Assembly: GCA_030682655.1 (NCBI GenBank)
Contig: JAUXNU010000127.1
Coordinates: 14,597-78,596 of the forward strand
DNA: 64,000 bases
Direction of reading: 5' to 3'
From: Actinomycetota bacterium
GTDB lineage: Bacteria > Actinomycetota > Coriobacteriia > Anaerosomatales > JAUXNU01
The translations under genes and the position numbers were made by a program. How positions within the stretch are numbered: position 1 is the stretch's first letter; each line of letters opens with the position of its first letter. The notes under the pieces are model-generated. The model saw nothing but the letters and a program-made list of their open reading frames with translations, ran no database searches and was not told the origin of the DNA. Shown here one piece after another: positions 23,211-50,562 of the stretch.

Positions 23211-24058
23211 TGCGCGTACTCATTGTTCCGAATGCGGGTAATTCGGTCGCGCTCGCTTCGGCGCGCGAGGTCGTGGCGTCGCTTGCGGCGGGAGGGTTCG
23301 ACCCCGTCCTCACCAGCGATGATGCCGAGGCTTCAGGACTGAAGGACTTCGGGGTCCCGGTCACTGAGATCGGAGAGCCCGGGCTGGTTGTCTCTCTCGG
23401 CGGCGATGGGACGATACTGAAGGCCGTCCACCTGCTCGGTCCGATCGAAGTGCCGATCCTTGGCGTGAACATGGGCAAGCTCGGCTTCCTCACCGGTGCG
23501 CCCTCGGAGGGGCTGCACGATGCCGTGGCGTCGGCCTTGGCAGGGGAAGGGCAGATCGAGCGACGCGAGACACTCGAGGCGATCGTCGTCATGGGTGGCC
23601 GGGAGGTCGGGCGCTATCGCGCCCTGAACGAGGTCTTCGTGGGACGCGGGGCGTCTGGTCGCGTGATCGAAGTATCCCTCTCTGTGAGTGGTACGCCGAT
23701 GATGTCTTTCACCGGCGATGGTGTTATCGTCGCGACCCCAACGGGATCGACCGCATATGCGCTTTCGGCCGGAGGGCCGATCGTGTCACCCTCGGTTCCG
23801 TGCAACGTGGTCGTTCCCGTCGCGCCTCACACGCTGACGACGCGCTCGATGGTGATCGGTTCATCCGACGTCGTCGAGATTCGCTTGCCGGATCCCGCAC
23901 GGCGCGACGGTTGCGTCTCCGTGGACGGCGAGTTGACCCCTTGTCGTAGAGACATAGAATCGGTGACCGTGTGTCGAAGCGAGAGTGACGTCCTGCTCGT
24001 GAAGCTCGATGGACGTGACTTCTATGAGGTTGCTGCTGCCGAGTTCCTCGGAGGCTAG
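23210..24058 (+). CDS. nadK: NAD kinase
   Basis: 282 aa. GGDGTILKA, NEVFVGR and GDGVIVATPTGSTAYALSAGGPIV motifs. Confidence 0.9.
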   Translation: MRVLIVPNAGNSVALASAREVVASLAAGGFDPVLTSDDAEASGLKDFGVPVTEIGEPGLVVSLGGDGTILKAVHLLGPIEVPILGVNMGKLGFLTGAPSEGLHDAVASALAGEGQIERRETLEAIVVMGGREVGRYRALNEVFVGRGASGRVIEVSLSVSGTPMMSFTGDGVIVATPTGSTAYALSAGGPIVSPSVPCNVVVPVAPHTLTTRSMVIGSSDVVEIRLPDPARRDGCVSVDGELTPCRRDIESVTVCRSESDVLLVKLDGRDFYEVAAAEFLGG

Positions 24059-24060
24059 AC

Positions 24061-25683
24061 GTGCTCGAGGAGCTTCATGTGCGTGATCTTGCACTCATCG
24101 AGGACGTGCGTCTTGAGTTTGGGCCGGGCATGACCGTGCTCACCGGGGAGACCGGGGCTGGGAAGACCGCGCTGGTTGGTGCTCTCAAGCTGCTCGTCGG
24201 GGAGCGTGCCGATTCGACGCTCGTGCGTGCGGGGGCGCAGGAAGCGCTGGTCGAGGGGCGGGTCGTCGGCACTGACGGCGAACTGGTCGCGGTCAGGAAG
24301 GTGAGCGCCGACGGGAGATCAAGGTGCTGGATCGACGGGGGCATGGCGACCGTGGGTCAGCTCGCCGAGGGCCTTGGCCCGCACTTCGACCTGCATGGAC
24401 AGCACGAGCACCAGGCCCTTCTCTCGCCTCCGCAACACGTCGGCTATCTTGATCGACACATCGGAGAGGCCGCAACGGGGGCTCTCGCGGCCTATCGCGT
24501 CGCACTCGGGGGGTACCGCGACGCGGTGTCGACTCTGCGCCGCCTCGAGTCCGAGTTGGCCGATTCGGAGAGGACGGGCGACTACCTTCGGTTCGTGACC
24601 CGGGAGATCGAGGCCGTTGCGCCGCACCCCGGCGAGGATGCGGAGATCGATCGCAGACTGCCGATGATGGAGCACGGCGAGCGTCTAACGGCGGCGGCAA
24701 GCGAGGCGTTCGCGTCACTTCGATCCGACGGCGGCGCGGGAGACGCGCTTGCTCGCGCGCAGTCCGTGCTGGCCCGTGTTGCGGGGCTCGACCCGGCTCT
24801 CGATTCGCTGACCGACCGGCTTACGGTCGCGCTTGCGGCCGTCGACGACATCGGTGGGGAGATCCGGGACTATGGTGGCGCCATCGAGTACGACCCGGCG
24901 GCACTGAATACCGCACAAGCCCGACTCTCCGCGCTCGCATCGCTCAAGAAGAAGTACGGACCGCACCTGGACGACGTCATCCGGACTGCGGCGGAGTCTG
25001 CGGAGCGGCTCGACCGGCTGGAGTGCGGCGCGTCGAGCCTGGGGGAGGCGCAGGACCGGGTCGCCACGGCGAAAGGAGACCTCGAGGCCGCAGCCGGGCA
25101 GCTTGCGGACGTCAGGGGAAGGGCCGTGCCGGGTTTCGTGAGTGCCCTCGGCGATGCGGTCTCCGATCTCGCTATGGGCGGTGTGCGGTTTGACGTCGGA
25201 ACGGCCGACCTCGCATTCGAAGAATGGACCGAGGACGGGCCGCAGCGAGTGGAGTTTCTCTATGCTCCCGGGTCGGATCAGCCTGCGCGGCCCCTTTCGA
25301 AGATAGCCTCGGGCGGTGAGGTCTCACGGGTCATGCTTGCGATGAAGGGCGTGCTCGGCAAAGCGGATCGGGTGCCGGTACTGGTGTTCGACGAGATCGA
25401 CGCGGGAATCGGAGGCGCGACGGCGGACGCTGTCGGGCGGCGTTTGAGACAGCTTGCCGCGGATCATCAAGTGCTGGTGATAACCCACCTTGCGCAGGTC
25501 GCGGTTCACGGGGACGCGCACATCGTCGTCGAGAAGACCGACGAAGACGGCGCGGTTCGAACGAGGGCCCGCGAGATCGACGAACAAGAGCGCGTGCTGG
25601 AGATCGCGCGCATGCTGTCGGGAAGCGATACGGGAACGAGCAGGGCGCATGCCGAGGAACTTCTGGCGTCAGCCCGGGCATGA
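24061..25683 (+). CDS. recN: DNA repair protein RecN
   Basis: 540 aa. Walker A GETGAGKTALVGAL, a long coiled-coil middle, and C-terminal SGGEVSRVMLA / VLVFDEIDAGIGG. Confidence 0.9.
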   Translation: MLEELHVRDLALIEDVRLEFGPGMTVLTGETGAGKTALVGALKLLVGERADSTLVRAGAQEALVEGRVVGTDGELVAVRKVSADGRSRCWIDGGMATVGQLAEGLGPHFDLHGQHEHQALLSPPQHVGYLDRHIGEAATGALAAYRVALGGYRDAVSTLRRLESELADSERTGDYLRFVTREIEAVAPHPGEDAEIDRRLPMMEHGERLTAAASEAFASLRSDGGAGDALARAQSVLARVAGLDPALDSLTDRLTVALAAVDDIGGEIRDYGGAIEYDPAALNTAQARLSALASLKKKYGPHLDDVIRTAAESAERLDRLECGASSLGEAQDRVATAKGDLEAAAGQLADVRGRAVPGFVSALGDAVSDLAMGGVRFDVGTADLAFEEWTEDGPQRVEFLYAPGSDQPARPLSKIASGGEVSRVMLAMKGVLGKADRVPVLVFDEIDAGIGGATADAVGRRLRQLAADHQVLVITHLAQVAVHGDAHIVVEKTDEDGAVRTRAREIDEQERVLEIARMLSGSDTGTSRAHAEELLASARA

Positions 25684-25721
25684 CGGTGGAGCTCAGCGTT
25701 CACGCGGCCTGCGCATGCTTC

Positions 25722-25730
25722 TGGTAGAAT
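25722..25730 (+). promoter_or_regulatory. Putative extended -10 element (TGgTAGAAT) upstream of steA
   Basis: TGGTAGAAT in the recN-steA gap, ~72 nt upstream of the steA start. No convincing -35. Confidence 0.3.
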
Positions 25731-25801
25731 CGCGGGTCAGCCGTTTCTGACGGGCGGGGTTCGTCGGTTCGGACGGGCCGTACCTGTCTTGTACGTGGGG
25801 T

Positions 25802-26929
25802 GTGGAGATGCGACATCAGGGCACGGCCCGGCTGGACAAGCGGACGAAGGACCTCGTCAAGAGGCTTGGCAGGGACGACATCGCGATCATCGACCACGTC
25901 GATATGGATCGCGTGAGTGCTGAATCGCTGCTCGAGACCGGGACAGAAGTCGTCATCAACGCCGAGAGGTTCATTTCCGGCGTCTACCCGAACGTCGGCC
26001 CGCTCCTGCTCGCTCGTGGCGGAGTGCGCCTGATCGACGATGTCGGCCCAGAGATATTCCAACGCGTGCGCGAGGGCGATGCGATCGATGTTATCGGCAA
26101 TGAGGTCCTTCTTGCGGGAAACGTTGTCGCGCGCGGAACACGCCTCACCGTGGAAACCATCGAAGCTGCCATGGAGCAGGCCAAGGACGGACTCGAGGAA
26201 CAGCTGGACAAGTTCGCGCGCAACACCTTGGAGTACCTGGAGCGGGAGAAGTCGCTTCTCACCGACGGGACGAACGTGCCAGCCACCCGTACCGAGTTGC
26301 ATGGCAGGCATGCACTTGTCGTAGTCCGAGGCTACGACTACAAGGCCGATCTCGACGCACTCAAGCCGTACATCCGCGAGATTCGACCCGCTCTTGTAGG
26401 TGTGGACGGCGGAGCTGATGCGATCATAGAAGCTGGCTTCAAGCCGGACATCATCATCGGGGACATGGACTCGGTCAGCGACGATGCGCTGCTCTCCGGT
26501 GCGGAGATCATCGTGCATGCCTATCCAGACGGGCGTTGCCCCGGCATGGAAAGGCTGGATGCGCTCGGTGTTCGCGGGGTAGCGTGGCCTCTGGCAGCAA
26601 CAAGCGAGGATCTCGCGCTTCTTCTGGCATATGAGTCAGGAGCTGACCTTGTGGTCGCGGTTGGGACTCACGCGAACCTCGTGGAGTATCTTGACAAGGG
26701 GCGCAAAGGGATGGCTTCCACGTTTCTCGTCCGGCTCAAGGTCGGGCCTAAGCTCGTCGACGCGAAAGGCGTCAACAAGCTCTACCGGACATCGGTCGGA
26801 CCAACGGATCTCATGTTGCTTGTGGGTGCGGCTCTTGTTGCGGTGAGCGTGATCGTGATGATCTCGCCCATGGTTCGCCAGATGCTATCGCTGCTCTTGC
26901 TGCGAGTTCGCACGATATTGGGTATCTAG
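25802..26929 (+). CDS. steA: SteA-like putative cytokinetic-ring protein (thiamine-pyrophosphokinase-like domain + C-terminal TM)
   Basis: 375 aa. GTARLDKRTKDLVKRLGRDDIAIIDHVDMD N-terminus and IIGDMDSVSDDAL motif, with a C-terminal hydrophobic helix. The position directly after recN matches actinobacterial steA. Confidence 0.7.
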   Translation: MEMRHQGTARLDKRTKDLVKRLGRDDIAIIDHVDMDRVSAESLLETGTEVVINAERFISGVYPNVGPLLLARGGVRLIDDVGPEIFQRVREGDAIDVIGNEVLLAGNVVARGTRLTVETIEAAMEQAKDGLEEQLDKFARNTLEYLEREKSLLTDGTNVPATRTELHGRHALVVVRGYDYKADLDALKPYIREIRPALVGVDGGADAIIEAGFKPDIIIGDMDSVSDDALLSGAEIIVHAYPDGRCPGMERLDALGVRGVAWPLAATSEDLALLLAYESGADLVVAVGTHANLVEYLDKGRKGMASTFLVRLKVGPKLVDAKGVNKLYRTSVGPTDLMLLVGAALVAVSVIVMISPMVRQMLSLLLLRVRTILGI

Positions 26930-26956
26930 CTACCTCAGACGACGAGGAGTCGCTGC

Positions 26957-27829
26957 ATGTACAACCTTCGCTACCATATCGCGTCGCTCGTGGCGGTCTT
27001 CCTTGCAATGGCGATCGGCCTGCTCCTTGGCACTATCGTCGTCGAGAGAGGTACTTTCGACAGGCAGCGCGATTCGATCGTGGAGAGCCTTCAGGATGAG
27101 TTTCGCACGCTTGCCGATGAGAACGATGTGCTTCGCACGGACAACGAGCACCTCGACGCTTTCGTAGGTGACCTGGTCCCCGCTCTCACGGGCGATGTCC
27201 TTGCGGGCAAGAGGTTCCTGGTGATCGCGTCGACCGGTAGAACCGACGGGCTCGGGGCTGTGACCCAGGCCATCGGGCAGGCCGGCGGAGAGGTGATAGT
27301 GGCGACGGAGAGCGAAGCCGGGATGGCACTTGCTGATCCCGCGGTCTCTCAGGTAGCGACACCGGTGGTGGGGGATCTGACGGGTGACGATCTGGTTTCG
27401 GCAGTCTCGAAGACGCTTGCTGCCGAGTGGGCGACTCCGGGCGTCGATCGCCCTCTCACAGATGCGCTGAGCGAAGCAGGTGCGATTCGCTTCGATCCCG
27501 CACTGCGGGAAGACGTGTTTGTGGATGGTGTGATCGCGATGGCTGCGTGGGACGGTGTACCAGATGACCTCGCGCTGAGGATAGCCGAGGAGCTTTCCCG
27601 GGTGGGCCGGATCAGCATCGGTGCGGAGGCCGGGACGAATCCGACGGGCGTCGCTGCTGCGAGTGCAGCGCAAGGTCTGTCTGCCGTCGACAACGCCAGC
27701 AGCGCCGCCGGGCGGCTGTCTGTGGTGTGGCTGCTCGCCGGACGGGCAAAGGGCTACTTCGGAACCGGGGATGCCGCTGACGCGCCATGGCCGACGATGG
27801 AGACGAAGACGGGCTCGCCGAAGGACTAG
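26957..27829 (+). CDS. MctB-like (DUF3186 / copper transporter family) membrane-anchored protein
   Basis: 290 aa. MYNLRYHIASLVAVFLAMAIGLLLG N-terminal anchor plus coiled-coil (SLQDEFRTLADENDVLRTDNEHL). Located after steA, as Rv1698 is in Mycobacterium. Confidence 0.6.
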   Translation: MYNLRYHIASLVAVFLAMAIGLLLGTIVVERGTFDRQRDSIVESLQDEFRTLADENDVLRTDNEHLDAFVGDLVPALTGDVLAGKRFLVIASTGRTDGLGAVTQAIGQAGGEVIVATESEAGMALADPAVSQVATPVVGDLTGDDLVSAVSKTLAAEWATPGVDRPLTDALSEAGAIRFDPALREDVFVDGVIAMAAWDGVPDDLALRIAEELSRVGRISIGAEAGTNPTGVAAASAAQGLSAVDNASSAAGRLSVVWLLAGRAKGYFGTGDAADAPWPTMETKTGSPKD

Positions 27830-28518
27830 GCGGGGGTGCGACGACGCTCGAACGCAAGCCGCGCCAACGCCCGTCCGACATGGACGAACTGCTGTCCCCT
27901 GTGGGCAAATCCCGTCAGATCGCGACCGGTTGCTGCGTGACTCATCGTGGTCGGTATCTCGATGACACGCATTCCCGCGCGCAGCGCGCGGACGGTCAGG
28001 GCGACTTCGACCCCGTATCCGAATGCGAAAGGCGTCACGTTCGCGAGACAACGGGCCGACAGCGCTCTTTGACCTGAGAGCGGGGCCTGTGCCACGAACC
28101 CGCCACCCATTCGAGCGATCCCCCAACGTGCGAGACCCTTGACGAGACCGACACCGGCTTTGCCCGCAGGGCGCGGGAATGCGGCAATCACCAAGTCCGC
28201 GCGTCCTTCGGAGACCGGGTCGAGAAGAAGCTGGCCCTGCTCCGCAGACTGGCCCAGGTCCCCGTCGAGAAGCAGGAGCACCTCGATCTCCTCGGCCAGA
28301 TGGGCGATGCCGGTGTCGAGGGCCGCGCCTTTGCCCACGTTGTCGGGCAGGGCGAGCACTTCGGCCCCCGCAGCCCGTGCGACTTCGGCCGTCGAGTCGG
28401 TGGAGCCGTCGTCGACGACCAGGACACGGTCGACACCGCGGATGGAGCGTGCGGCGATCACGGTCGCGCCGATGAGATCGGCTTCGTTGAAGGCGGGGAT
28501 GAGTGCGACGACGCTCAT
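27826..28518 (-). CDS. Family 2 glycosyltransferase (small, DPM1/GtrB-like)
   Basis: 230 aa from the internal ATG at 28518. ALIPAFNEADLIGATV, VVDDGSTDST, and DxD-like LLDGDL. ATGA overlap with the murJ stop. Its stop overlaps the mctB-like stop in a shared CTAG. Confidence 0.8.
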   Translation of the reverse strand: MSVVALIPAFNEADLIGATVIAARSIRGVDRVLVVDDGSTDSTAEVARAAGAEVLALPDNVGKGAALDTGIAHLAEEIEVLLLLDGDLGQSAEQGQLLLDPVSEGRADLVIAAFPRPAGKAGVGLVKGLARWGIARMGGGFVAQAPLSGQRALSARCLANVTPFAFGYGVEVALTVRALRAGMRVIEIPTTMSHAATGRDLTGFAHRGQQFVHVGRALARLAFERRRTPA

Positions 28519-30080
28519 CGAGATCGCCCTGTCAGTCCCACGATGCCTCTCCGGATGAGCGCCACGCCCTCTGGGATCTCGGGTACGCGCAGGAGGGCTG
28601 CGATGCCGTAGGTGACGCCAAGACCGAGCGAGCCGGCGATGGCGAGCTGGACGAGGAATCCGGCGCGCGCGTCGGAAAGACCGCGAGTCGCATACAGCAG
28701 GCCGACGACGACCGCCGCCCCAGCCGTTGATGCGACAAGCATCCGGGCCAGAATGGAGACGACGCCGCGCATGTCGAACGCGCCGATGCGGCGGCGAAGG
28801 ACAAACAGGAGGGCGACGAGGCTTATGGACGCGAACACCGCATCGGAGATAGGGATGCCCCGTAGTCCAAGCCCCTTCCAGCTCCCGATGCCGACTGTGA
28901 GGGTCGCGTACAGCGAAACCTGGACGACGGTCGCCGCGCCGTTGACGAGCATCGGCGTCTTGGTGTCCTGCATCGAGTAGAAGGTCCGGATGAGGAACAT
29001 GAACATTGCGAAGAAGAACAGCGCCACGCCCCACCAGACGAGTACTTCGGCGACGACCGGTATGTCCTCGGCAGTGAAACGACCGGCGCGATACAGGGTG
29101 GTCAGTGGTGTGGCCAGCGTGACAAGCATGGCCGCCATCGGCAGCATGAGGACGCCGGTGATGCGGAGTCCCCTGCCGAAGGTCAGCTTGAAACTCGACC
29201 AGTCGTTGCGTCCGGCCTGGTCGGAGAGCTCGGTGAAGATCGCCGTTGCCAGAGCCACGGCGAAGATGCCGTATGGAAGCTGGTAGAACATCCACGCGTA
29301 CATCAGTGTCGCCGGTCCTTCGGGGGAGACCTCGAAGGCGTAGGCGTTGCGGAAGGACACGGCGATCAGGTTCGTGACGACGTAGAGCACCGTGGGAACT
29401 GCCATCTTGCCGAGCCGGCGCATTCCCGGGTGCTTGAAATCGATGCGCAAGGTGTACGCAGGTTTGAGTCTGAGCAGGCTCGGGAGCTGCACGGCGAACA
29501 TGGCGAGCACTCCGAGAGACGTGCCGACTGCCAATCCGATTCGGGCCAGCTCAGGATTCGTCTCGCGGAAGGGAACGTAGAAGCCCAGCAGAGTGACGAT
29601 CACAACAAGGTTGTTGAACACGGGGCCGATAGTCGGCCAGAAGTAGCGCCTCTGCGAGTTGAGCACGGCGCTGATGATCGATCCTGCGCCGTAGAACACC
29701 ACCTGGACCGCGAAGAATCGGAAGAAGTACGTGGCGAGCGCCGCGTCGTCCGGACTGATACGAAATGTCTGGGTCCTGACGAACGCTTCGGCATACACCG
29801 TGCCAAGGACGGCTACCACGCTCAGGATGAGCGTGGTCAGGTTGAAGAGCGAGCTCGCGAAACGCCAGGCGTCTTCGCGGCTCTTGTCTCCCCACCACTC
29901 CAGAAAGATCGGTATGAAGAGCGACGAGATGATGCCGCCTGCGACGAGCTCGTAGATCATGTTCGGGATGTTGTTCGCGACGCCGTACGATGCAGCGAGC
30001 GCGGTCACTCCGAGCGCGTATGCCGTCGCCCAGGTGCGCACAAACCCCGTGACCCGGGACAGCGTCGTAGATATGGACAT
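28515..30080 (-). CDS. murJ: MurJ/MviN-family (MOP superfamily) lipid-linked glycan flippase
   Basis: 521 aa. LSRVTGFVRTWATAYALG...ANNIPNMIYELVAGG N-terminal MurJ signature and ~14 hydrophobic segments. Confidence 0.85.
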   Translation of the reverse strand: MSISTTLSRVTGFVRTWATAYALGVTALAASYGVANNIPNMIYELVAGGIISSLFIPIFLEWWGDKSREDAWRFASSLFNLTTLILSVVAVLGTVYAEAFVRTQTFRISPDDAALATYFFRFFAVQVVFYGAGSIISAVLNSQRRYFWPTIGPVFNNLVVIVTLLGFYVPFRETNPELARIGLAVGTSLGVLAMFAVQLPSLLRLKPAYTLRIDFKHPGMRRLGKMAVPTVLYVVTNLIAVSFRNAYAFEVSPEGPATLMYAWMFYQLPYGIFAVALATAIFTELSDQAGRNDWSSFKLTFGRGLRITGVLMLPMAAMLVTLATPLTTLYRAGRFTAEDIPVVAEVLVWWGVALFFFAMFMFLIRTFYSMQDTKTPMLVNGAATVVQVSLYATLTVGIGSWKGLGLRGIPISDAVFASISLVALLFVLRRRIGAFDMRGVVSILARMLVASTAGAAVVVGLLYATRGLSDARAGFLVQLAIAGSLGLGVTYGIAALLRVPEIPEGVALIRRGIVGLTGRSR

Positions 30081-30346
30081 TATCGCGGTGGAGCGCGCGA
30101 TAGTGGGCTGGGATATGGTCCTGCCTCCGTTCGGTCAGTCCGCTTGGACCCCTCCGGACCGCGTCACACACAATTGTATCCGAGCATGTGGCGCAGCGGC
30201 TGGGCGCCTTGACGGCGTCGATGACTCGTAGCCGTGTCGTGACCATGTGCCATACCGGCTTCGCGCGGCATTCCGCTATACTTGCGGGTGGGCGCCTCTA
30301 GCCCGGTCCCGTGCAGTCGCACGCAGGGCCATGTCCCCAGATATGA

Positions 30347-30372
30347 TCGTCGCACGTGTACACGTGCGACGA
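30347..30372. promoter_or_regulatory. 26-bp perfect palindrome (putative operator or 5'-UTR hairpin) abutting the RBS of the 771-aa membrane protein gene
   Basis: TCGTCGCACGTGT|ACACGTGCGACGA was checked base by base: 13+13 nt, no mismatch. The right arm overlaps the GAGGAG RBS (30371-30376), and the ATG is at 30382. Confidence 0.9.
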
Positions 30373-30381
30373 GGAGTGTGG

Positions 30382-32697
30382 ATGAAGCGTTCGCTGACAC
30401 TGGTTGTGATCGTCGCGTCGATCGTCGCGACACTACTGCCTGCTGCCGCCGCGAAAGACGTGCAGCCGGCGCGCCGGGTCGTGCTCGTCCTGGCCCCGTA
30501 TCTTGAATGGTCGGACATCACCGCAGAAAGTGCGCCTGCTATCGCAGAACTCGGTGCTTCAGGGGCTCTCGGGAATCTGAACATGCGCAACCGTGGCAGA
30601 CTCTCAAGCTTGTCGTCGCCGGTACAGGGCGCGCTCACCCTCTCGTCCGGTTCATGGGCGGCCGAGGACCCATTGGCAGCGGCGGCGTACGGCTCGGACG
30701 AGTACTACGAGGGCGGGACGGCCGGTGATGCGTTCCTGCGGGCCACAGGGGCCGATTCGGCCGGTGCACAGGTCGTCTACCTTGGGATGTCCCGTGCTTT
30801 GCGCTTCAACGAGCAGGCCGAGACGCTCGCGGTCAAACTCGGCGCTCTCGGCCAGGCAATCGTGGATGCGGGTGGAACCACCGCGGCCATTGGGAACTCC
30901 GATTCCGGGTACGAGGTACGTGGCCTGGCCAGGAGTCGCCCGGCCGCGCTCGTTGCAATGGACGCGCAGGGTCGTGTTGTCCTTGGCGACGTATCATCCG
31001 GACTGCTCCAAAGCGATTCCGAGGCGCCATTCGGCATATCGACCGATCTGGCTGCGTTCGAGAAGGAGTATCAGAGGGTCTCAGAGGAGTTATCGAAGGC
31101 CACAGGGCCAGTGCTGGTCGTTCTCGATCCGGGAGATCTTCAGCGAGCCAAGGAGTTCGCGCCTGAGGCTTCCCCGGCGGTTGCTCGGGCGCACCACAGG
31201 CAGGCGGTCCGGACGCTGGATGTCATCGTCGACATCGTGATGAACGGGCTACCGGACGACAGCGTCATCATGGTCGTTCCGCAGGCGCTGGTTGAGACTC
31301 CCGGTGAGGTCATGGGTCTTGCACCCGTCATCGTCGCCGGTCCAGGTTGGTCTGGATATGCCAGTTCCTCGTCGACGCAGCGAACGGGCCTCGTCACGAA
31401 CCTCGACGTTGCCGCCACGGTGACGGGCTCGCTGGGTATCGAGAAGCCGGTCGAGGTGCTAGGGAACCCCATGGTACCCGTGCGCAACTCGGGCTCACTC
31501 GCGGACAGGGTCGCCGAGTTGTCGTCTATGAACGACGCGGCGGTCGCAGTCGACAGCGCGAAGCCCGCGATCATCAATGCGTTCATCGCGTGCACTACGC
31601 TGATTCTCATGCTCGCGACGGTCGTTCTCCTGCGGGCGCGAAGATGGAGCGTTCGCACGGTCGATCGGGTGTCGCGCTCAGGTATCACGCTGCTGTTGAT
31701 AGCCCTGACGGTTCCGGTGGCATCGACGGCGATGTTCGCGCTTGGGACTCGTCCGCAGAGTGCTGCGGCTGCGAGCGTTCAGTTCGCGGTGGTGGGTGCG
31801 ATTCTGGCCGTCGCGGCGCTCGTGCTGCGACGGTTCGTCGCTCTGCGCGTTCCCGTCGCTATTCTCAGCTTGCTCGCTACCGGCGTGATACTTGTCGATC
31901 AGTGGTTCGACGCGCCGTGGTCCTTCACGAGCTTCCTTGGGTACTCTCCTCTGATGGGGGCGCGCTACTACGGACTTGGGAACGAGAGCGCGGCGGTGTT
32001 GGTCGGCTCGGTGCTCGTCGGAACAAGCCTGCTCATGGATCAGTTCCCTGAGTCTGCCTGGACCCGACACATGCGCTTGTGGCTCCTGCCGGGTATCGGT
32101 GCGGTCATCGTCGGTACCGCCGCAGCCCCGTTTCTTGGGGCAAATGTGGGAGTCGTCGTGTGGGGCGTGGTCGCCTTCGGATTCGCGTGGTCGCTCATGA
32201 ACCGTGTGCGTTTCGGCTGGAGGCTAGCGCTGGGGGTGGCGGCCATCGTCGTCGCGCTTCTGGTGGCGTTCTCACTTGTGGATCTGTCTGCGGGCACGGG
32301 AAGTCAGACGCATCTGGCCCGTGCGTGGGAGAGTGCGCGTGCGGGCGGCGTGGGCGAGCTCTGGCTTATCGTGGCGCGAAAGGCCGAGACGAACATGCGC
32401 GTTCTGACTCGAACGAACTGGGCGTACCTTCTTGTCGCGGTTCTCGGATTCCTTGGCTTCATGCGCTGGAGGCCTCAGGGTGATTTCGCGGACACGCTTG
32501 CGGAGAATCCCTACTTCTCCGCCGCGATGGCTGCCTGCCTCGTGGGTGGAGTGGCTGCATACCTGACCGAGGACTCGGGGATCGTGATCCCGGCGCTGAT
32601 GTTTCTCTACGTAGGAGTGGGCATTCTGTGCCTGATGCTCGACCGGCTGCCCGGTGTCATGCAAAGCGAGCATTCCGGGGAAGGGGACAGCTCGTGA
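30382..32697 (+). CDS. Large envelope protein: signal peptide + ~420-aa extracytoplasmic domain + polytopic C-terminal membrane domain (function unknown)
   Basis: 771 aa from the ATG at 30382 (RBS GAGGAG). MKRSLTLVVIVASIVATLLPAAAAKD signal-like N-terminus. The soluble region has alkaline-phosphatase-superfamily-like edge motifs (VVLVLAPYLEWSD...; TGLVTNLDVAATV). About 9-11 hydrophobic helices start at ~aa 430. Confidence 0.7.
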   Translation: MKRSLTLVVIVASIVATLLPAAAAKDVQPARRVVLVLAPYLEWSDITAESAPAIAELGASGALGNLNMRNRGRLSSLSSPVQGALTLSSGSWAAEDPLAAAAYGSDEYYEGGTAGDAFLRATGADSAGAQVVYLGMSRALRFNEQAETLAVKLGALGQAIVDAGGTTAAIGNSDSGYEVRGLARSRPAALVAMDAQGRVVLGDVSSGLLQSDSEAPFGISTDLAAFEKEYQRVSEELSKATGPVLVVLDPGDLQRAKEFAPEASPAVARAHHRQAVRTLDVIVDIVMNGLPDDSVIMVVPQALVETPGEVMGLAPVIVAGPGWSGYASSSSTQRTGLVTNLDVAATVTGSLGIEKPVEVLGNPMVPVRNSGSLADRVAELSSMNDAAVAVDSAKPAIINAFIACTTLILMLATVVLLRARRWSVRTVDRVSRSGITLLLIALTVPVASTAMFALGTRPQSAAAASVQFAVVGAILAVAALVLRRFVALRVPVAILSLLATGVILVDQWFDAPWSFTSFLGYSPLMGARYYGLGNESAAVLVGSVLVGTSLLMDQFPESAWTRHMRLWLLPGIGAVIVGTAAAPFLGANVGVVVWGVVAFGFAWSLMNRVRFGWRLALGVAAIVVALLVAFSLVDLSAGTGSQTHLARAWESARAGGVGELWLIVARKAETNMRVLTRTNWAYLLVAVLGFLGFMRWRPQGDFADTLAENPYFSAAMAACLVGGVAAYLTEDSGIVIPALMFLYVGVGILCLMLDRLPGVMQSEHSGEGDSS

Positions 32698-33659
32698 CAG
32701 ATTGGACGGCGGAGTCGGTACGCCTCGTCGCCGCGCTTCTGGCCGGATGGGGTCTGCCGGCCCTTGGGATGCACATGTTTGTGCCGACGCTCGAGACATC
32801 CGGACCGCATGTGCGGAACTACCGGGACGCGGATGTGTTCGTCGGACTCGGTACGGTCTGGGTGTTCTGGGTGATCGCGATGGTCGGGCTGAATACCGTA
32901 GCTGTCTCAGGGGTCTTCTTCGGCAGAGAGCTCGCCGCTCCGGTCGTATTCCAGGCCATCCCCGTAGTCGTAGCGGCGTTCGTTTTCGGACTGATCGATG
33001 ACGCCATGGGCGGTTCCGCAGAGAAGGGGTTTGGCGGTCACGTGAGGGCGCTCCTCAGAGGCAGGCTGACGACCGGCGGGCTGAAGCTCCTTGGCATCGG
33101 GGCGGCCTCGCTCGGCGTCGCGCTTGTCCTTGAGCTGTCGCGCGCGGGTGAACCCGGGGCGACTCCCGTGTGGCGGACCGCCGTCGCGGTAGTAGCCGCG
33201 ACCGGAATCATCGCGCTGAGTGCGAACCTCGTGAACCTCCTGGATGTGCGTCCGGCGCGGGCCATCAAGGCGCATACCGCACTGAGTCTCATCGTGGTAT
33301 GCGTGGCAGTGGCACGCGCGATCCAGCTGGACTTCTCCGCGGGCGCTTCTCTCTTCGAGGGTGTTGGTCTGTTCGTCATGATGATCGGGCCGATGGTGGC
33401 CGTGTGGCGCTGGGACGCCAGCGGCCGCGGGATGCTCGGGGATGCTGGAGCCAACGCTGCGGGCGCGCTGGCAGGCTTCATGCTGGCCGCGGTTCTGCCT
33501 CTGCCGGGCCAGGTGATCGCGGCGGCGGCACTCCTTGGCATGAACCTACTCTCGGAGCGGGTCTCGTTCTCGGCCGTGATCGAGCACAACCGCGCGCTGG
33601 CATGGGTGGACGGGCTCGGCAGGATGCCCGAGGTGACCGAAAATCGCCCGGCTTCGTGA
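32694..33659 (+). CDS. MraY/WecA-like (GT4 polyprenyl-phosphate sugar-1-P transferase family) membrane protein with a divergent catalytic loop
   Basis: 321 aa. GTGA overlap with the upstream stop. GLIDDAMG and MLGDAGANAAG resemble the MraY DD and GDxGS loops, but the NxxNxxDGxDGL loop reads NLVNLLDVRPARA. About 9-10 TM segments. Confidence 0.6.
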   Translation: MTDWTAESVRLVAALLAGWGLPALGMHMFVPTLETSGPHVRNYRDADVFVGLGTVWVFWVIAMVGLNTVAVSGVFFGRELAAPVVFQAIPVVVAAFVFGLIDDAMGGSAEKGFGGHVRALLRGRLTTGGLKLLGIGAASLGVALVLELSRAGEPGATPVWRTAVAVVAATGIIALSANLVNLLDVRPARAIKAHTALSLIVVCVAVARAIQLDFSAGASLFEGVGLFVMMIGPMVAVWRWDASGRGMLGDAGANAAGALAGFMLAAVLPLPGQVIAAAALLGMNLLSERVSFSAVIEHNRALAWVDGLGRMPEVTENRPAS

Positions 33660-33715
33660 CAGGTGTGCGGGTATGATGGACGTGTGACAACGAGGCAGGA
33701 GGCTGAAGGGCTCAT

Positions 33716-35329
33716 ATGGCAAAGTACATATTCGTGACCGGTGGAGTCGTATCTTCGCTCGGCAAGGGCATTACCGCCGCCTCCCTCGGGAGGCTGCTCA
33801 AGGCCCGCGGGTTGAAGGTGACCATCCAGAAGCTCGACCCGTATCTGAACGTCGACCCCGGCACGATGAGCCCCTTCCAGCATGGCGAGGTCTTCGTCAC
33901 CGACGACGGGGGAGAGACCGACCTCGATCTGGGTCACTACGAGCGCTTCATCGACGAATCACTCTCGCGCGACTGCAACGTCACTGCGGGTTCGGTCTAT
34001 TCGACCATCGTGACCAAGGAACGCCGGGGCGATTTTCTTGGCGGCACGGTTCAGGTTATTCCGCACGTGACCAACGAGATCAAGGACCGCATCCTGCGCC
34101 TTGCCGAGCAGACGCAGCCCGACGTGATCATCACGGAAGTGGGCGGCACGGTCGGCGACATCGAGTCCCTGCCGTTCCTCGAGGCGATCAGGCAGCTGCG
34201 CAAGGACCAAGGCCGGGAGAACGTCTGCTACATCCACGTGACGCTCGTGCCGTTCATCGCGGCAAGCGCGGAACTCAAGACCAAGCCCACGCAGCATTCG
34301 GTCAAGGAGCTTCGCAGCATCGGTATCCAGCCGGACTTCATCGTGTGTCGCTCTGACCGCCCGATCGACGCGGGGATACGGCGCAAGATAGCGCTGTTCT
34401 GCGATGTCGACCCGAAGGCGGTCGTGAGCGCCCAGGACGCGAGCAGCATCTATGAGGTGCCGCTCCGGCTGCGCGAACAGCAGCTCGACGAGATGGTCAT
34501 CGATCGGCTGCATCTCGACTGCGGGCAGCCGAACATGGACGAGTGGAACGCTTTCGTCGCTCACTCGGCGTCGCTGTCCAGTGAGGTCGACATCGCGCTG
34601 GTCGGCAAGTACGTGCAGCTCCCCGACGCATACCTCTCCGTCACCGAGGCCCTCGACCATGCGGGTATCTTCCACGACCACAAGGTGAACGTGCACTGGG
34701 TGGACGCCGAGTCGTTGACGCCAGAGGAGGTCGACCAGGTCCTTTCGGAGATGGATGGCATTCTTGTGCCCGGGGGCTTCGGCATTCGGGGCATCGAAGG
34801 CAAAGTGCGTGCGGCGCGCTACGCTCGCGAAGGCAAGGTCCCGTACTTCGGTATCTGCCTTGGCCTGCAGGTCGCCGTCGTTGAGTTCGCGCGGTACGTC
34901 GCGGGACTTGAGGGTGCGAACTCGGCCGAGTTCGATCCGGTCACGGAACACCCGGTCATCGACCTCATGCTCGAGCAGCACGAGGTCGACGACATGGGCG
35001 GCACCATGCGCCTGGGCGCCTATCCCTGCAAGGTCACAGCGGGAACCAGGGGCCACGAGGCCTACAAGGAAGAGGTCATCTACGAGCGGCATCGACACCG
35101 CTACGAGGTCAACAACGCGTATCGTCAGAAGCTCGTGGATGCCGGACTCGTTGTAAGCGGACTGAGTCCTGATGGCAAGCTGGTCGAGATGATCGAGCTG
35201 CCGGACCATCCGTGGTTCCTTGGCAATCAGGGACACCCCGAGTTCAAGAGCCGTCCGACGCGTCCGGCACCGCTATTCCGGGACTTCGTCGGGGCGGCGG
35301 TCGATTACCGGCGCGCACGCGAGAGCTGA
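33716..35329 (+). CDS. pyrG: CTP synthase
   Basis: 537 aa. [20 protein letters not shown]-terminus and the glutaminase motif GICLGLQ. Confidence 0.95.
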
Positions 35330-35336
35330 CGGGCGC

Positions 35337-36455
35337 ATGACTGACGGGCGGCTACTGCGGACATTTCTCGACCTGGTGCGTATTGACAGCCCATCGCGCT
35401 CGGAGTCGGTTGTGGCAGCGTATTGCGGAAGCGCTTTTGAAGCGCGCGGGTTCGAAGTGCGTTTCGATGACACCATGTCGAGTACGGGTGCCGACATCGG
35501 GAACCTGATAGCGACGCGTCACGGCGATTCGGAGCGAACGCTCGTCCTTAGCGCGCACATGGACTGCGTGGAGCCATGCCGGGGTGTCGAACCTGTGGTG
35601 GTGGACGGGGTTGTCTCCTCGGCAGGGCAGACCGTGCTTGGCGCCGATGACAAGGCGGGCATCGCGGCGATTCTGGAGGCCGTGGACCGGCTGGACGAAT
35701 CGGGCGCACACACACCGGCGCTCAAGATCATCCTGACAGTCTGTGAAGAGCTTGGACTGCACGGCGCCAAGGCGCTCGACCCGGCGGACGCTGCCGGGGA
35801 TCTCTGCCTGGTGCTCGATGCGGACGGCGAGCCCGGCGGCATCGTCATTGGCGCTCCGACGCACTACACGTTCGTGGCGACATTCCAAGGAACCGCCTCC
35901 CACGCGGGCGTTGCGCCTGAGCGAGGCCGGTCGGCGCTCGTCATGGCATCGCGCGCGATCGCTGCGATGCAGCTCGGCCGGCTGGACGAGAACACCACCG
36001 CCAACATAGGGACCGTCGAAGGCGGAATCGCGACGAATGTGGTAGCCGCATTCGCGAGGGTTACCGGTGAGTGCCGCTCACTCCTCGCCGAAAGGGCGGA
36101 CGAAGTGCGGCTGCTCATGGACCAGGCGATGAGGGAGGCGGCTCGCACCGGGGACGGACAGGTGGATATCGCGTGGACCAAGGAGTACGAGGGGTTCCTG
36201 CGGGACTCCGACGACACGCTTGTCGTGATCGTCTCCGATGCGTGTCGGGAGGTAGGGCTACAGCCCCGGACATTCACGACCGGTGGTGGCAGCGACGGCA
36301 ACGTCTTCTCCAGCGACGGGACTCCCACGCTCGTGCTGTCCTGTGGCATGCGCAACGTCCACAGCACTGACGAGACCGTTCACCTTGCGGACATGGATTC
36401 GATTGCGGCGCTCATCGTCGCGGTGGCAAGCAGGGTGGCCGATCCGTCGTCATGA
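35337..36455 (+). CDS. M20-family metallopeptidase (peptidase T / tripeptidase-like)
   Basis: Internal ATG at 35337. SAHMDCV, GADDKAGIAAILEA, CEELGLHG and a C-terminal GGGSDGN pattern. Confidence 0.8.
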   Translation: MTDGRLLRTFLDLVRIDSPSRSESVVAAYCGSAFEARGFEVRFDDTMSSTGADIGNLIATRHGDSERTLVLSAHMDCVEPCRGVEPVVVDGVVSSAGQTVLGADDKAGIAAILEAVDRLDESGAHTPALKIILTVCEELGLHGAKALDPADAAGDLCLVLDADGEPGGIVIGAPTHYTFVATFQGTASHAGVAPERGRSALVMASRAIAAMQLGRLDENTTANIGTVEGGIATNVVAAFARVTGECRSLLAERADEVRLLMDQAMREAARTGDGQVDIAWTKEYEGFLRDSDDTLVVIVSDACREVGLQPRTFTTGGGSDGNVFSSDGTPTLVLSCGMRNVHSTDETVHLADMDSIAALIVAVASRVADPSS

Positions 36456-37564
36456 GACTCGTGTGGGCCATCGTCACCTCCGTGGAGGCGACAGCTGACG
36501 GTGCGCAGACGCTCGAGGTCGCGCTCGATGACCGGGGCAGTGGACGTGCGATCGCCTACACGCGGCTGACCGGGGAGTGCCGTCTCGCCGACCGCGTCTT
36601 GCTCAATACGACCGCCGTCGACATGTCCCTCGGCACAGGTGGGCTGCACTTCGTGGTGGCCCGCATGGGGGACGCCGAGGGTGTGGCGCTCGACGACCCG
36701 TCCGGCGGACACATCATGAAGATGCGCTATACGCCGTCGCAGATCGACGTGCTTGCCGTCGAGGAGCACGAGAGCCCACACCACTCGATCATGAAGGCTG
36801 CCGAGGACATAGCAGGGCTTCCGGTGGCCTGCTGCGGGCTGCACAGCCAGGTGCCCCTGGTGGCCGCAGCGGTCAAGGCTTTCGACGCGAACTTGCGCAT
36901 AGCATATGTCATGACCGACTTCGCGGCGCTGCCGCTGGTGCTTTCGGATGTCGTGAGGGCCGCTGTCAGGGCGGGATTGATCGATACCACGATCACGTGC
37001 GGACAGGCGTTCGGCGGTGACCTCGAGGCCGTGAACCTGCACTCGGCTCTGCTGGCTGCGCGCCATGTGGCACGGGCGGATGTGGCGATCGCCGCAATCG
37101 GTCCCGGTGTCGTCGGCACCTCGACACCATTCGGCCACGGCGGCATCGCGCAGGGTGAGGCGATAAACGCTGCGGGTGTTCTCGGAGGAGTCCCCGTGGC
37201 ATGCCTGAGGGTCTCCTTCGCCGATGCCCGCGCCCGCCATCGCGGCGTGAGCCATCACACGCTTACCGCGCTCTCGACGGTCGCGCTTGCGCCGGCTCTG
37301 GTCGCGGTTCCCTCGCTTCCCGAAGAGTACGCCGAGGAGGTAGACCTGGCCCTCGAAGAGGCCCACGTGTGGAGCCGGCACAGGCGCGCCATCTCCTCGG
37401 CCGGGAGCACCGCTCCGCCCTCTCTAGGCGGCGTCGAAGTGAGAACGATGGGTCGCGATCTTAACCAAGATCCCGCGTTCTTCGCAGCCGCTTTCGCCGC
37501 TGGGGACGTCTGTGCCAGAGTCGCCCGGGTAGCGCAGGGCAAGCTGCCGCCGACGGGTGAATAG
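36452..37564 (+). CDS. DUF3866-like conserved protein of unknown function
   Basis: 370 aa. ATGA overlap with the M20 gene. Family assignment is from recalled family features (LNTTAVDMSLGTGGLHFV, HSQVPLVAAAVK, IGPGVVGTSTPFGHGG) and was not verified by a search. Confidence 0.55.
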   Translation: MRLVWAIVTSVEATADGAQTLEVALDDRGSGRAIAYTRLTGECRLADRVLLNTTAVDMSLGTGGLHFVVARMGDAEGVALDDPSGGHIMKMRYTPSQIDVLAVEEHESPHHSIMKAAEDIAGLPVACCGLHSQVPLVAAAVKAFDANLRIAYVMTDFAALPLVLSDVVRAAVRAGLIDTTITCGQAFGGDLEAVNLHSALLAARHVARADVAIAAIGPGVVGTSTPFGHGGIAQGEAINAAGVLGGVPVACLRVSFADARARHRGVSHHTLTALSTVALAPALVAVPSLPEEYAEEVDLALEEAHVWSRHRRAISSAGSTAPPSLGGVEVRTMGRDLNQDPAFFAAAFAAGDVCARVARVAQGKLPPTGE

Positions 37565-37686
37565 AGTGATGGGGCCTGCTGCATAAAGCACGGTGTCTGC
37601 GTTACACTGGCCTGAGTTTCTTGCCCGCTGGTGTTCGATCCCAGCCTGGTGTGGTCAGCGGGTCCATCACAGACAAGGAGATTGCC

Positions 37687-38802
37687 GTGATCGTAGGCGT
37701 GCCCAAGGAGATCAAGGACAACGAGTTTCGCGTGGGCATGACCCCTGCGGGCGCGCGCGAATTCGTGAGCCATGGACACACGGTGCTTGTAGAGAAGTCT
37801 GCCGGAGTCGGCTCCTCGTTCGAAGATGGCGAGTACGTGGGCGCTGGTGCCGAGATCGCCGAGACCGCCGAGGAGGTCTTTGCACGCGCCGACATGATCG
37901 TGAAGGTCAAGGAGCCTCAGGCGGCCGAGATCGAGCGTCTTCGAGAGGGGCAGATCCTCTTCACGTACCTGCACCTTGCGCCCGACCTCTCGCAGACCGA
38001 GGGGCTCGTCAAGTCCGGCGCCGTGTGTATCGCCTACGAGACCGTCGAGCTTCCCAATCGCTCCCTGCCCCTGCTCGCGCCGATGTCCGAGGTTGCGGGT
38101 CGAATGGCGACTCAGGTGGGCGCCGAGTACCTGCTCAAGCCGATGGGCGGTAGGGGCATGCTCATGGGGGGCGTTCCCGGGGTTCTCCCAGCCAACGTCG
38201 TCATTCTGGGCGCGGGTGTAGTGGGCATGAATGCCGCCTACGTTGCCGTTGGCATGGGTGCCCACGTCACCGTTCTCGACGTGAACCTGGATCGGCTTCG
38301 CTACATCGATGACCTCTGGGGAAACCGGATCCGCACAGTGTATTCGTTGCGCCACAACATCGAGCAAGCAGTCTATCAGGCCGATCTCGTGATCGGCGCC
38401 GTGCTTCTGGCCGGCGCGCGTGCTCCTTGGCTCGTCACAAGAGACATGCTTCCCGACATGAAGCGCGGTTCGGTGGTCGTCGACGTCTCCGTTGACCAGG
38501 GCGGATGCATCGAGTCGACGAAGCCCACCACCCACTCCGATCCGATCTACTTCGTCGACGGTGTCCTGCACTACGGTGTCGCCAACATGCCGGGCGCGGT
38601 GCCCAACACGTCCACGCTTGCCCTCACCAATGCCACCCTGCGGTATGGTCTGGCGATTGCGAACAAGGGATGGAAGCAGGCCGTTGCCGAGGACGCGGCG
38701 CTGGCCAAGGGCGTGAACGTACTCGCGGGCAAGATCGTCTACGAGCCGGTCGCCGAGGCACACGGCATGGACTACACGCCACTGGAGCAGCTTCTGGGCT
38801 AA
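37687..38802 (+). CDS. ald: Alanine dehydrogenase
   Basis: GTG start 7 nt after [29 protein letters not shown]-terminus and the NAD motif [13 protein letters not shown]. Confidence 0.9.
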
Positions 38803-38811
38803 GGAGCGCAC

Positions 38812-39717
38812 ATGCGCTCTCACGTTGCGGAATTCATGGCCTATCTGGCCGTTGAGAGGGGGGCGTCCCCTCACACGGTCGATGCATACCGCCGCGACCT
38901 GGCAGGCTACATGGACGCGCTCGATGCCCGCGGCGTTGCTGACGTCGATGCGGTGACGCGGGACGACATCATAGCCTACCTCGTGCGACTGCACGAAGCC
39001 GGCCTTGCTCCCAGCACCGTCGAGCGTCGGGTTGCGGCGGTCAAGAGCTTCCACAAGTTCCTTGTGCGCGAGGGCGTTACCGAGAACCAACCGGCTGCGC
39101 GGGTGAGGTTGCCGAAGGTTCCCGAGAGGCTGCCGGACTCCATCTCGATCGAGCAGGCCAAGCACCTGCTTTCGCAGACCTTCGGCGACGGGCCGCCCGG
39201 CATACGGGACCGCGCGATTCTGGAGATGCTATACGGATGCGGAATGCGTGTCAGCGAGTTGACCTCACTCGAACTCGACGACCTGGCGCTTGACGACGGC
39301 TTTGTTCGCGTGTTCGGAAAAGGCGAGAAGGAGCGCGTCGTCCCGATCGGGAAGCCAGCTACGGCTGCCTTGTCGGAGTACCTTGCCCACGGGCGGCCGT
39401 ACCTTCGGACGAAGGGCTCCACCCGGCCAGCGGAGCCGTCAGCCGTCTTTCTCAGTGTGCGTGGCCGACGCCTGACGCGTCAGGCGGTCTACGCGATGGT
39501 ACGGAAGTATGGTGAACTCGTCGGGCTTCGTCTCCACCCTCACACGTTGCGGCACTCGTTCGCTACTCACATGCTCGAAGGGGGTGCGGACCTGCGCGCA
39601 TTGCAGGAGATGCTCGGGCATGCGGACATATCCACAACGCAGGTGTATACGCATGTGGACCGCCAGCACATCCGCGAGGAGTACCTCACAACTCACCCGC
39701 GGGCACGTTTGCGATAG
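38812..39717 (+). CDS. xerD: Site-specific tyrosine recombinase XerD
   Basis: 301 aa. R...HxxR...Y catalytic set (GMRVSEL, HTLRHSFATHMLEGGADLR, GHADISTTQVYTHV). Confidence 0.85.
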   Translation: MRSHVAEFMAYLAVERGASPHTVDAYRRDLAGYMDALDARGVADVDAVTRDDIIAYLVRLHEAGLAPSTVERRVAAVKSFHKFLVREGVTENQPAARVRLPKVPERLPDSISIEQAKHLLSQTFGDGPPGIRDRAILEMLYGCGMRVSELTSLELDDLALDDGFVRVFGKGEKERVVPIGKPATAALSEYLAHGRPYLRTKGSTRPAEPSAVFLSVRGRRLTRQAVYAMVRKYGELVGLRLHPHTLRHSFATHMLEGGADLRALQEMLGHADISTTQVYTHVDRQHIREEYLTTHPRARLR

Positions 39718-47208: not shown

Positions 47209-47217
47209 GCCTTGACA

Positions 47218-48153: not shown

Positions 48154-48190
48154 CAGGGTCGGAACGCGGAGTTGAAGGAGGTGGGTCGCG

Positions 48191-50511: not shown

Positions 50512-50529
50512 TGAGCGGCGCAGGACGCA

Positions 50530-50538
50530 TGATAGAAT
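50530..50538 (+). promoter_or_regulatory. Possible internal extended -10 element (TGaTAGAAT) ahead of murE
   Basis: TGATAGAAT in the 51-nt ftsI-murE gap, 25 nt before the murE GTG. Confidence 0.3.
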
Positions 50539-50562
50539 CGACCGTCTTCTAGGTGGGAACAA

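Follow-up and report, generated by a model that had tools for sequence, protein, structure and literature searches.

The locus described here raises the question of whether an MraY-like membrane protein whose catalytic loop has been rewritten is still an enzyme and, if it is, on which donor it acts. The gene, hereafter the target, lies at 32694-33659 on the plus strand of a 64,000-nucleotide stretch of DNA (the window) from an Actinomycetota bacterium of the Coriobacteriia (contig JAUXNU010000127.1, positions 14,597 to 78,596). PNPT enzymes such as MraY, WecA/TagO and GPT control entry into envelope glycan synthesis and have been validated as targets for antibiotics, and to our knowledge all characterised members use uridine diphosphate (UDP)-sugars. 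We find that the target belongs to a family, here called the RPxR-loop subfamily, that is a real, widespread and uncharacterised cousin of MraY/WecA. With slightly better than even confidence, and judging from conserved residues and structure models, we take the target to be a catalytically active member of this large PNPT subfamily that would use a non-canonical donor to prime a lipid-linked envelope glycan.

The target open reading frame (ORF) is stop-free and encodes 321 amino acids, 100% identical to the public gene call P0001. Its GTG start at 32694 agrees with that call and overlaps the TGA of the upstream gene as GTGA. A first-pass annotation of the window had reported GLIDDAMG, NLVNLLDVRPARA and MLGDAGANAAG in this protein, and all three were found exactly in the translation. 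It had also set the loop against that of a second gene in the window, at 53419-54462, whose translation carries NTVNLTDGLDGLA and MGDTGSLGLG. The contrast between NLVNLLDVRPARA and NTVNLTDGLDGLA can be read from both translations, and the comparator is a bona fide MraY, matching PF00953 at 1e-35 and MraY_sig1 in a Pfam scan. A normal DGxDG loop was looked for elsewhere in the target protein and none is present.

Since the Pfam and NCBIfam scans of the target were empty and the profile matches to MraY weak, a fold comparison was needed. The family profile had MraY (4j72) as its sole match among PDB sequences (HMMER), at a marginal E=1.4 with the motifs in register, and the target itself stays below the PF00953 gathering threshold (27 bits), unlike some other members of the subfamily. 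The AlphaFold (AF2) model of the target, built on 38 homologues, has a pLDDT of 92.3 and a pTM of 0.91. In a Foldseek search of the PDB the top 35 matches were all MraY or human DPAGT1 (probability 1.00, TM 0.5-0.59); the best was MraY (E 1.7e-4, TM about 0.55-0.59), and beyond these 35 the scores fall off to E>0.5. Bridging members were also found: an orthologue from Paenibacillus scores 33.7 bits, above the 27 bits that PF00953 requires, and of 34 diverse family members 11 touch this profile at E<=1. Membership of the target in the MraY/WecA (PNPT, polyPGT) structural superfamily is therefore supported by the modelled fold and the bridging members, at superfamily level since the target itself misses PF00953, and the MraY/WecA-like assignment of the first-pass annotation holds. 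Its further statement that the family architecture is kept stands for the PNPT fold and fails in the details: the model and the hydrophobicity of the translation give nine transmembrane (TM) helices, not ten, with the active site at the cytoplasmic face, and Loop E with its HHH motif and TM10 are absent. Comparison of the translations showed no hydrophobic segment after residue ~292 of the target, in contrast to MraY. The C-terminal third thus differs from the MraY architecture, a caveat on the superfamily placement.

The family is very large. A word-indexed search with the target returned at least 599 homologues, an exhaustive profile search 3,081 representatives of 50%-identity clusters (1,366 at E<=1e-30), and a scan of one genome per species at least 570 coding stretches, spread over Actinomycetota, Bacillota and Armatimonadota. 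The loop NxxNxxDxxPxRxxK is present in 367 of the 377 family proteins collected and a DGxDG-type loop in none, while GxxDD and GDxG[AS] also occur in 353 of them; the variant loop was likewise seen in 83/83 loci examined, orthologous and more distant. The loop difference is therefore unambiguous and far beyond chance, and the DxRPxRA-loop clade that had been proposed exists, as a distinct and uncharacterised subfamily shown by the loop census together with cross-phylum conservation. The family consensus is DLRPGRALK, of which the DVRPARAIK of the window (DVRPARA against DLRPGRA) is a rare variant. A decaying pseudogene or degenerate MraY duplicate without function could have explained a target that matches nothing in Pfam or NCBIfam. 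The ORF is intact, however, and has at least 599 homologues and 3,081 cluster representatives; the homologues span the full length and are conserved, unlike sporadic pseudogenes, the family motifs are invariant, the operon structure is conserved, and the operon that holds the Clostridioides difficile counterpart is essential; these conservation data refute the pseudogene explanation outright and leave it a negligible probability.

No description of the subfamily or its loop, of MraY-like actinobacterial paralogues or of the C. difficile locus tags was found in the searchable literature. Database names of family members are inconsistent, ranging from hypothetical through 'UDP-GlcNAc:undecaprenyl-phosphate GlcNAc-1-phosphate transferase' and 'MraY family glycosyltransferase' to MraY itself. 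P0514 (WP_425448691.1, Dethiothermospora halolimnae) and P0381 (Paenibacillus alba), for example, are auto-named 'phospho-N-acetylmuramoyl-pentapeptide-transferase' or 'MraY family glycosyltransferase' and are without MraY-specific elements. Such names are similarity-based only, and the wrong MraY-type names may propagate.

In MraY_AA, the DDD motif (D117, D118, D265) is needed for catalysis, with D265 binding Mg2+; N190, D193 and G264 line a uridine-adjacent pocket, and K70, G194, L195, D196 and F262 form the uracil pocket (PMC6606608). In human GPT with its substrate bound, the diphosphate is joined to N185 and D252 through Mg2+, the uridine has F249 stacked on it, and both diphosphate and GlcNAc are held by Loop E (R301, H302, R303) (PMC10258461). 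GxxDD is the hallmark of the polytopic PGT superfamily (PMC10541605).

In the HMMER register to MraY 4j72, the target retains D102/D103, N178/N181/D184, G249 and D250. The GxxDD motif G99-L-I-D102-D103 (32988..33002; this and the following motifs are on the plus strand), which lies where a TM helix ends on the cytoplasmic side, is equivalent to D117/D118 of MraY_AA and invariant in the family alignments. The rewritten loop, N178-L-V-N181-L-L-D184-V-R186-P187-A-R189-A-I-K192 (33225..33269), keeps the N/N/D positions and carries V-R-P-A-R where MraY has G194-L195-D196-G-L; read residue by residue, G194-L195-D196 is replaced by V/L-R186-P187 and L198 by R189, with K192 added. In M247-L-G249-D250-A-G-A-N254 (33432..33455), D250 occupies the position of the Mg2+-binding Asp (MraY D265, GPT D252) and M247 that of the uridine-stacking Phe, F262 in MraY. 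The first-pass annotation had left open which Mg2+- and UDP-binding residues survive: on this alignment the Mg2+ ligands N181 and D250 are kept and the UDP-side G194-L195-D196 and F262 are replaced.

Three further elements belong to the family. Loop A (N42-Y-R-D, consensus NYRG; 32817..32828) is a cytoplasmic beta-hairpin after TM1 at the position of MraY Loop A (K70/T75 region), with strands E39-41 and E47-50 in the model; N42 is invariant in three family alignments, and its equivalence to MraY K70 is not assignable. A family-specific cytoplasmic segment, K111-G-F-G-G-H116...G123-R-L-T-T-G128-G-L-K131 (33024..33086), has G112, G115, H116, G128 and K131 invariant across phyla. The C-terminal cytoplasmic tail S287-E288-R-V-S291-F-S...I296-E...L302...D306-G-L-G309-R310 (33552..33623), helical at 292-307 in the model, stands where MraY has Loop E (HHH) and TM10; this cytosolic SERxSFSxxIE...DxLGR tail is invariant at E288, S291, L302, D306 and G309. 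The cross-phylum alignment behind these statements covers Coriobacteriia, Micrococcales, Acidimicrobiia, Clostridia, Paenibacillus, Thermoanaerobacterales and Armatimonadota at 24-45% identity. Its invariant residues are N42, G99, D102, D103, G112, G115, H116, G128 and K131 in the N-terminal part; N181, L182, D184, P187, R189 and K192 in the loop; and D241, M247, G249, D250, G252, N254, G257, E288, S291, L302, D306 and G309 in the C-terminal part. The target carries all the subfamily motifs: NYRG-type, GxxDD, KGxxGH...TTGxxK, NxxNxxDxxPxRxxK, MxGDxGxN and SExxSxxxxI...DxxG(R). Because the Asp triad and the Mg2+ ligands are invariant, while the uracil-pocket residues and Loop E are replaced, the half of the site that performs the chemistry is under strict selection and the half that recognises the donor has been rebuilt.

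Four of the five MraY uracil-pocket positions (G194, L195, D196, F262) are changed, to residues that are invariant over three phyla. This makes it quite unlikely that the target is an ordinary WecA/TagO-type UDP-GlcNAc:polyprenyl-phosphate GlcNAc-1-phosphate transferase whose loop has drifted and in which uridine is held by other side chains. Such an enzyme would have the same fold and all the catalytic and Mg2+ residues that are conserved here, and the automated names 'UDP-GlcNAc:undecaprenyl-phosphate GlcNAc-1-phosphate transferase' and 'MraY family glycosyltransferase' speak for it; the loop is also varied in eukaryotic GPT (AGxNG), which still uses UDP-GlcNAc. Those annotations are nevertheless similarity-based only, the sugar- and diphosphate-binding Loop E is absent, and the π-stacking Phe common to MraY and GPT (PMC10258461) is Met. 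A different substrate, one of the possibilities named in the first-pass annotation, is the best-supported interpretation of an uracil pocket that is replaced beside catalytic and Mg2+ residues that are invariant.

What surrounds the target was compared in 54 target loci with sufficient flanks. A MurJ-family gene adjoins it in 48/54 and a SteA gene in 46/54; SteB lies within 8 kb in 41/54, a family-2 glycosyltransferase (GT2) is found in 31/54, and the partner, an alkaline-phosphatase (AP)-fold protein, in 29/54. Together with the target, SteA, SteB, GT2, a MurJ-family flippase and DUF3866 thus make up a conserved module, joined in Coriobacteriia by the AP-fold partner, and these are the genomic neighbours of the DxRPxRA-loop genes that the first-pass annotation had suggested looking for. 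The order is recN-steA-steB-target-murJ-like-GT1-GT-pyrG in Brevibacterium, spoIVB-spo0A-steA-steB-GT2-target in a metagenome-assembled genome (MAG) of the Thermoanaerobacterales, and steA-GT2-target...M20-DUF3866 in Paenibacillus; in an Armatimonadota genome a GT2::target fusion comes after steB. The steA-steB-GT2-target operon recurs in Thermoanaerobacterales, C. difficile and Armatimonadota. GT2 is fused to the target in P0367, P0439, P0440 and P0483, where the extra TM helix of P0367 keeps the active site cytoplasmic, and to the partner in P0238 and P0240. P0340 (610 aa) was considered as a partner::target fusion and rejected, as its junction and an Arg-rich internal stretch suggest a frameshift or an assembly read-through of the 4-bp overlap.

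The flippase gene bears on two other explanations. In the window, the adjacent MurJ passes the TIGR01695 equivalog cutoff and could be taken, with one member auto-named phospho-N-acetylmuramoyl-pentapeptide-transferase, as a sign that the target is another lipid I synthase, an isozyme of MraY that works with MurJ on peptidoglycan precursors. In other lineages, however, the MurJ-like gene next to the target is a divergent paralogue (124 bits against a cutoff of 235). Compared with MraY proper, moreover, the target is without PF10555 (MraY signature 1, MraY_sig1), the HHH motif of Loop E, the tenth TM helix and a dcw location, and its uracil pocket is replaced; it lies ~20 kb away from the dcw cluster of the same window, which has its own canonical MraY. 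We regard an isozyme as very improbable.

A non-catalytic membrane scaffold or regulator, which would present polyprenyl phosphate to a GT2 making a polyprenyl-phosphate (Pren-P)-linked sugar or would regulate SteAB, is in our judgement unlikely. The TM-less GT2 resembles Pren-P glycosyltransferases (ArnC, PpgS, AglJ), the PNPT-like domain acts as the membrane anchor in the GT2::target fusions, and the uridine pocket is lost. Strict invariance of the Asp triad and of the Asn/Asp Mg2+ ligands across phyla at ~25% identity is hard to explain without catalysis, and for this reason the non-catalytic paralogue mentioned in the first-pass annotation is disfavoured. MurJ/MOP flippases, in addition, act as far as is known on diphosphate-linked rather than monophosphate-linked carriers, which together with the 48/54 adjacency counts against a scaffold.

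In C. difficile, cdr20291_1053-1057 directly follow spoIVB-spo0A and are annotated as a pyrophosphokinase (373 aa), an exported protein (291 aa), a family-2 glycosyltransferase (230 aa), a 'glycosyl transferase family protein' (274 aa) and a DUF3866 protein (355 aa); CDR20291_1053-1056 had 0 transposon insertions, the operon was classed as of function unknown, and its knock-down by CRISPR interference (CRISPRi) strongly impaired viability and left the cells short, swollen, phase-bright and chained (PMC12157513, PMC12548448). We identified CDR20291_1056 through the two single guide RNA (sgRNA) sequences of that study, which led to matching 28%-GC contigs where gene sizes and order agree exactly with cdr20291_1053-1057. 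The 274-aa protein carries GILDD, KGH, TTGGFK, NLMNLLDLRPGRAIK, MMGDTGSN, TEKYSLTKIIE and DKLGR, aligns end to end with the target (26% identity, E=4e-34), and has SteA, MctB/SteB, GT2 and DUF3866 as neighbours.

On the reading that we favour, the target would bind polyprenyl phosphate, the phosphate of which would attack a Mg2+-bound diphosphate donor to give polyprenyl-PP-X, as in its relatives. The donor would probably not be the usual UDP-HexNAc or UDP-MurNAc-pentapeptide, since other elements, invariant in the family, stand in place of those that recognise the donor in known enzymes; a different nucleotide, or a diphosphate without any nucleotide, might serve. GT2 would then extend the primed lipid-linked glycan and the MurJ-type transporter would flip it; its processing outside the membrane would, in Coriobacteriia, fall to the AP-fold partner. 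The pathway may be tied to SteAB-dependent cell separation, the glycan being needed for normal cell shape and separation; functional coupling of the target to SteAB is something we infer from synteny only.

Several points weigh against a catalytically active enzyme with a new donor. The target had zero Pfam or NCBIfam matches even at E<=1, and hhalign of its family with the window MraY gave a weak E=0.053, although this alignment and the HMMER match to 4j72, both weak, are in register at GxxDD, NxxNxxD and xxGDxG. The mapping of residues between target, MraY and GPT is a motif-anchored sequence alignment and not a superposition of coordinates. The relatives of GT2 include polyprenyl-P glycosyltransferases (ArnC, PpgS, AglJ), which would fit a Pren-P-sugar pathway with a non-catalytic PNPT-like protein. 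The order tlyA-recN-steA-steB-pyrG-xerD is an ancient synteny, and the neighbourhood signal could be partly inherited rather than functional. The C. difficile operon is essential, and what CDR20291_1056 itself contributes to this is inseparable from polarity on the DUF3866 gene downstream, which is essential too. Finally, no enzymatic activity, donor or product of any family member was found in the literature searched.

A bolder proposal goes beyond the favoured reading and is tentative, being clearly less likely than not. The RPxR-loop family might be the first polyPGT lineage to have given up UDP-sugars, forming with the GpgS-like GT2, DUF3866, the MurJ-type flippase and SteB an ancient pathway, essential in Clostridia, to a lipid-linked component of the envelope that would govern cell separation. 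The donor would then be a non-uridine nucleotide or a nucleotide-free diphosphate, possibly supplied by the neighbouring TPK-like 'pyrophosphokinase' SteA, and R186, R189 and K192 would hold the leaving phosphate. This scheme, if true, would explain the nucleotide/carbohydrate pocket of SteA. In C. difficile the product could, by analogy, be related to its glycerate-containing lipoteichoic acid (LTA), because the α-GlcNAc-(1→2)-glycerate of the latter is GpgS-type chemistry.

In the window the genes run in the order tlyA-ppnK-recN-steA-steB, GT2 and murJ on the minus strand, partner and target on the plus strand, then pyrG-M20 peptidase-DUF3866-ald-xerD. The region 22407-39717 is the tlyA-ppnK-recN-steA-steB-...-pyrG-...-xerD block that is classical for actinobacteria, into which four genes, GT2-murJ-partner-target, are inserted. 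The dcw cluster lies about 10 kb beyond this block (47212-62000, mraW first at 47212), with the canonical MraY at 53419-54462 inside. In Mycobacterium tuberculosis the genes follow the order tlyA-ppnK-recN-steA-steB-pyrG-xerD, part of which is published (PMC12977500). The adjacency of pyrG was considered as a hint of a cytidine diphosphate (CDP)-linked donor and down-weighted, the order tlyA-ppnK-recN-steA-steB-pyrG-xerD being ancestral and present without the target in mycobacteria.

SteA, a TPK-like cytokinetic protein, is encoded at 25802..26929 (plus strand; NF040608 division_SteA, 500 bits), followed on the same strand by a SteB/MctB-like protein at 26957..27829, the orthologues of which match PF11382 MctB. 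The GT2 gene (27826..28518, minus strand) overlaps the murJ stop and encodes a small soluble protein of 230 aa with no TM helix. This protein is closest to GpgS (1.5e-9 among PDB sequences), then to ArnC (3.5e-6 among PDB sequences), AglJ and PpgS; its NCBIfam matches, to AglJ, GpgS and PpgS, were all sub-threshold. The MurJ-family (MOP) flippase gene (28515..30080, minus strand; PF03023 1e-85; TIGR01695 293.9 bits against a cutoff of 235.55) is transcribed divergently from the partner-target pair.

The partner gene (30382..32697, plus strand) encodes 771 aa and is translationally coupled to the target through the 4-bp GTGA overlap. Its start is the ATG at 30382, preceded by a GAGGAG Shine-Dalgarno sequence; an 816-aa mechanical ORF start was discarded, its 45-codon N-terminal extension (30247-30381) being spurious. 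We found 130 homologues of the partner and no Pfam match. The product has an N-terminal TM anchor, an alkaline-phosphatase-superfamily ectodomain and a membrane domain of ~11 TM helices; its AF2 model (pLDDT 90.7) matches arylsulfatase, YejM, NPP and AP in Foldseek. It represents an undescribed family in which the AP-fold ectodomain precedes the membrane domain, the reverse of the LtaS/EptA/YejM order, with the invariant membrane-domain motifs R529-x-Y-G-x-G-N-E536, G587-A-N589, H645, R667-K668 and D732-S733. The ectodomain showed no invariant His, and the metal site there may therefore be degenerate. In five loci of Coriobacteriales/Eggerthellales (L013, L017, L025, L026, L032) a partner-like gene (25-28% identity) lies by murJ and GT2 on the opposite strand from the target, so tight partner-target coupling is not universal in Coriobacteriia.

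Downstream, the DUF3866 gene (36452..37564, plus strand; PF12982 in orthologous loci) is the counterpart of CDR20291_1057 in C. difficile. DUF3866 accompanies the module in Coriobacteriia, Paenibacillus and C. difficile (also at L093 3670-4737 and L059 15387-16532), and no relative was found among PDB sequences. In each of four distant lineages a PepT-like M20/M42 peptidase follows the module at a distance of a few genes (window ~35334-36455, plus strand; L087 10291-11352; L088 11211-12332; L059 14171-15301). In some Armatimonadota and Bacillota a soluble P-loop NTPase of 230-234 aa (GxGSGKTE...DLDIVNPYF) and then a ferredoxin directly follow the module (NTPase at L087 9098-9790, L088 7845-8549 and L051 ~16160-16700); the two NTPase copies compared are 40% identical, neither with a Pfam match on record. 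The MAG MFD00032.bin.2.33 has two whole-module copies on different contigs (L012, L020), which may reflect a true duplication or a mixed bin.

The interest of the family rests on its breadth, on essentiality in a pathogen and on the new SteAB link. Here is a large multi-phylum subfamily with the phosphotransfer machinery kept and the donor pocket rebuilt. As C. difficile needs the five-gene operon around its own member for growth and normal morphology, the family is also a candidate target for narrow-spectrum drugs. The steA/steB linkage suggests that SteAB was ancestrally coupled to lipid-linked glycan synthesis; work on SteAB has so far been confined to Corynebacteriales, which lack the enzyme pair.

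Compared with known systems, the target is closest in plan to MraY (4J72, 5CKR, 8G01), with which it has GxxDD, NxxNxxD and the Mg2+-binding xxGDxG in register and a cytoplasmic active site. It differs from MraY in G194-L195-D196, which is L/V-R-P, in F262, which is Met, in having 9 and not 10 TM helices, in being without signature 1, the Loop E HHH and TM10, in lying outside the dcw cluster and in failing PF00953. WecA/TagO and GPT (DPAGT1; 5O5E, 6BW5, 6FM9) have the same fold, and the GPT Mg2+ ligands N185 and D252 correspond to N181 and D250. By analogy, the target probably also acts where WecA/TagO and GPT do, at the step that first commits a lipid-linked glycan pathway to the membrane, ahead of a glycosyltransferase and a MOP flippase. 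Unlike GPT, the target has Met for F249 and no counterpart of Loop E R301/H302/R303, where it has the SERxSFSxxIE...DxLGR tail, and its donor is probably different.

The SteA/SteB cell-separation system of Corynebacteriales, which acts through RipA activation, resembles the module in that the target stands beside steA-steB in most lineages, and the chaining of C. difficile cells after CRISPRi of the operon recalls ste mutants. For Mycobacteriales, in contrast, steAB is described with no GT2 or PNPT-like gene alongside, and such a neighbour goes unmentioned in both SteAB papers; these papers do report an unexplained conserved nucleotide/carbohydrate pocket in SteA and the position of steAB downstream of spo0A in Clostridia. 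CDR20291_1056, the only family member with transposon-sequencing (Tn-seq) and CRISPRi data, belongs to the same subfamily as the target, with every family motif and with SteA, SteB, GT2 and DUF3866 as neighbours. It is shorter (274 aa), and its operon, downstream of spo0A, has neither the AP-fold partner nor a MurJ gene.

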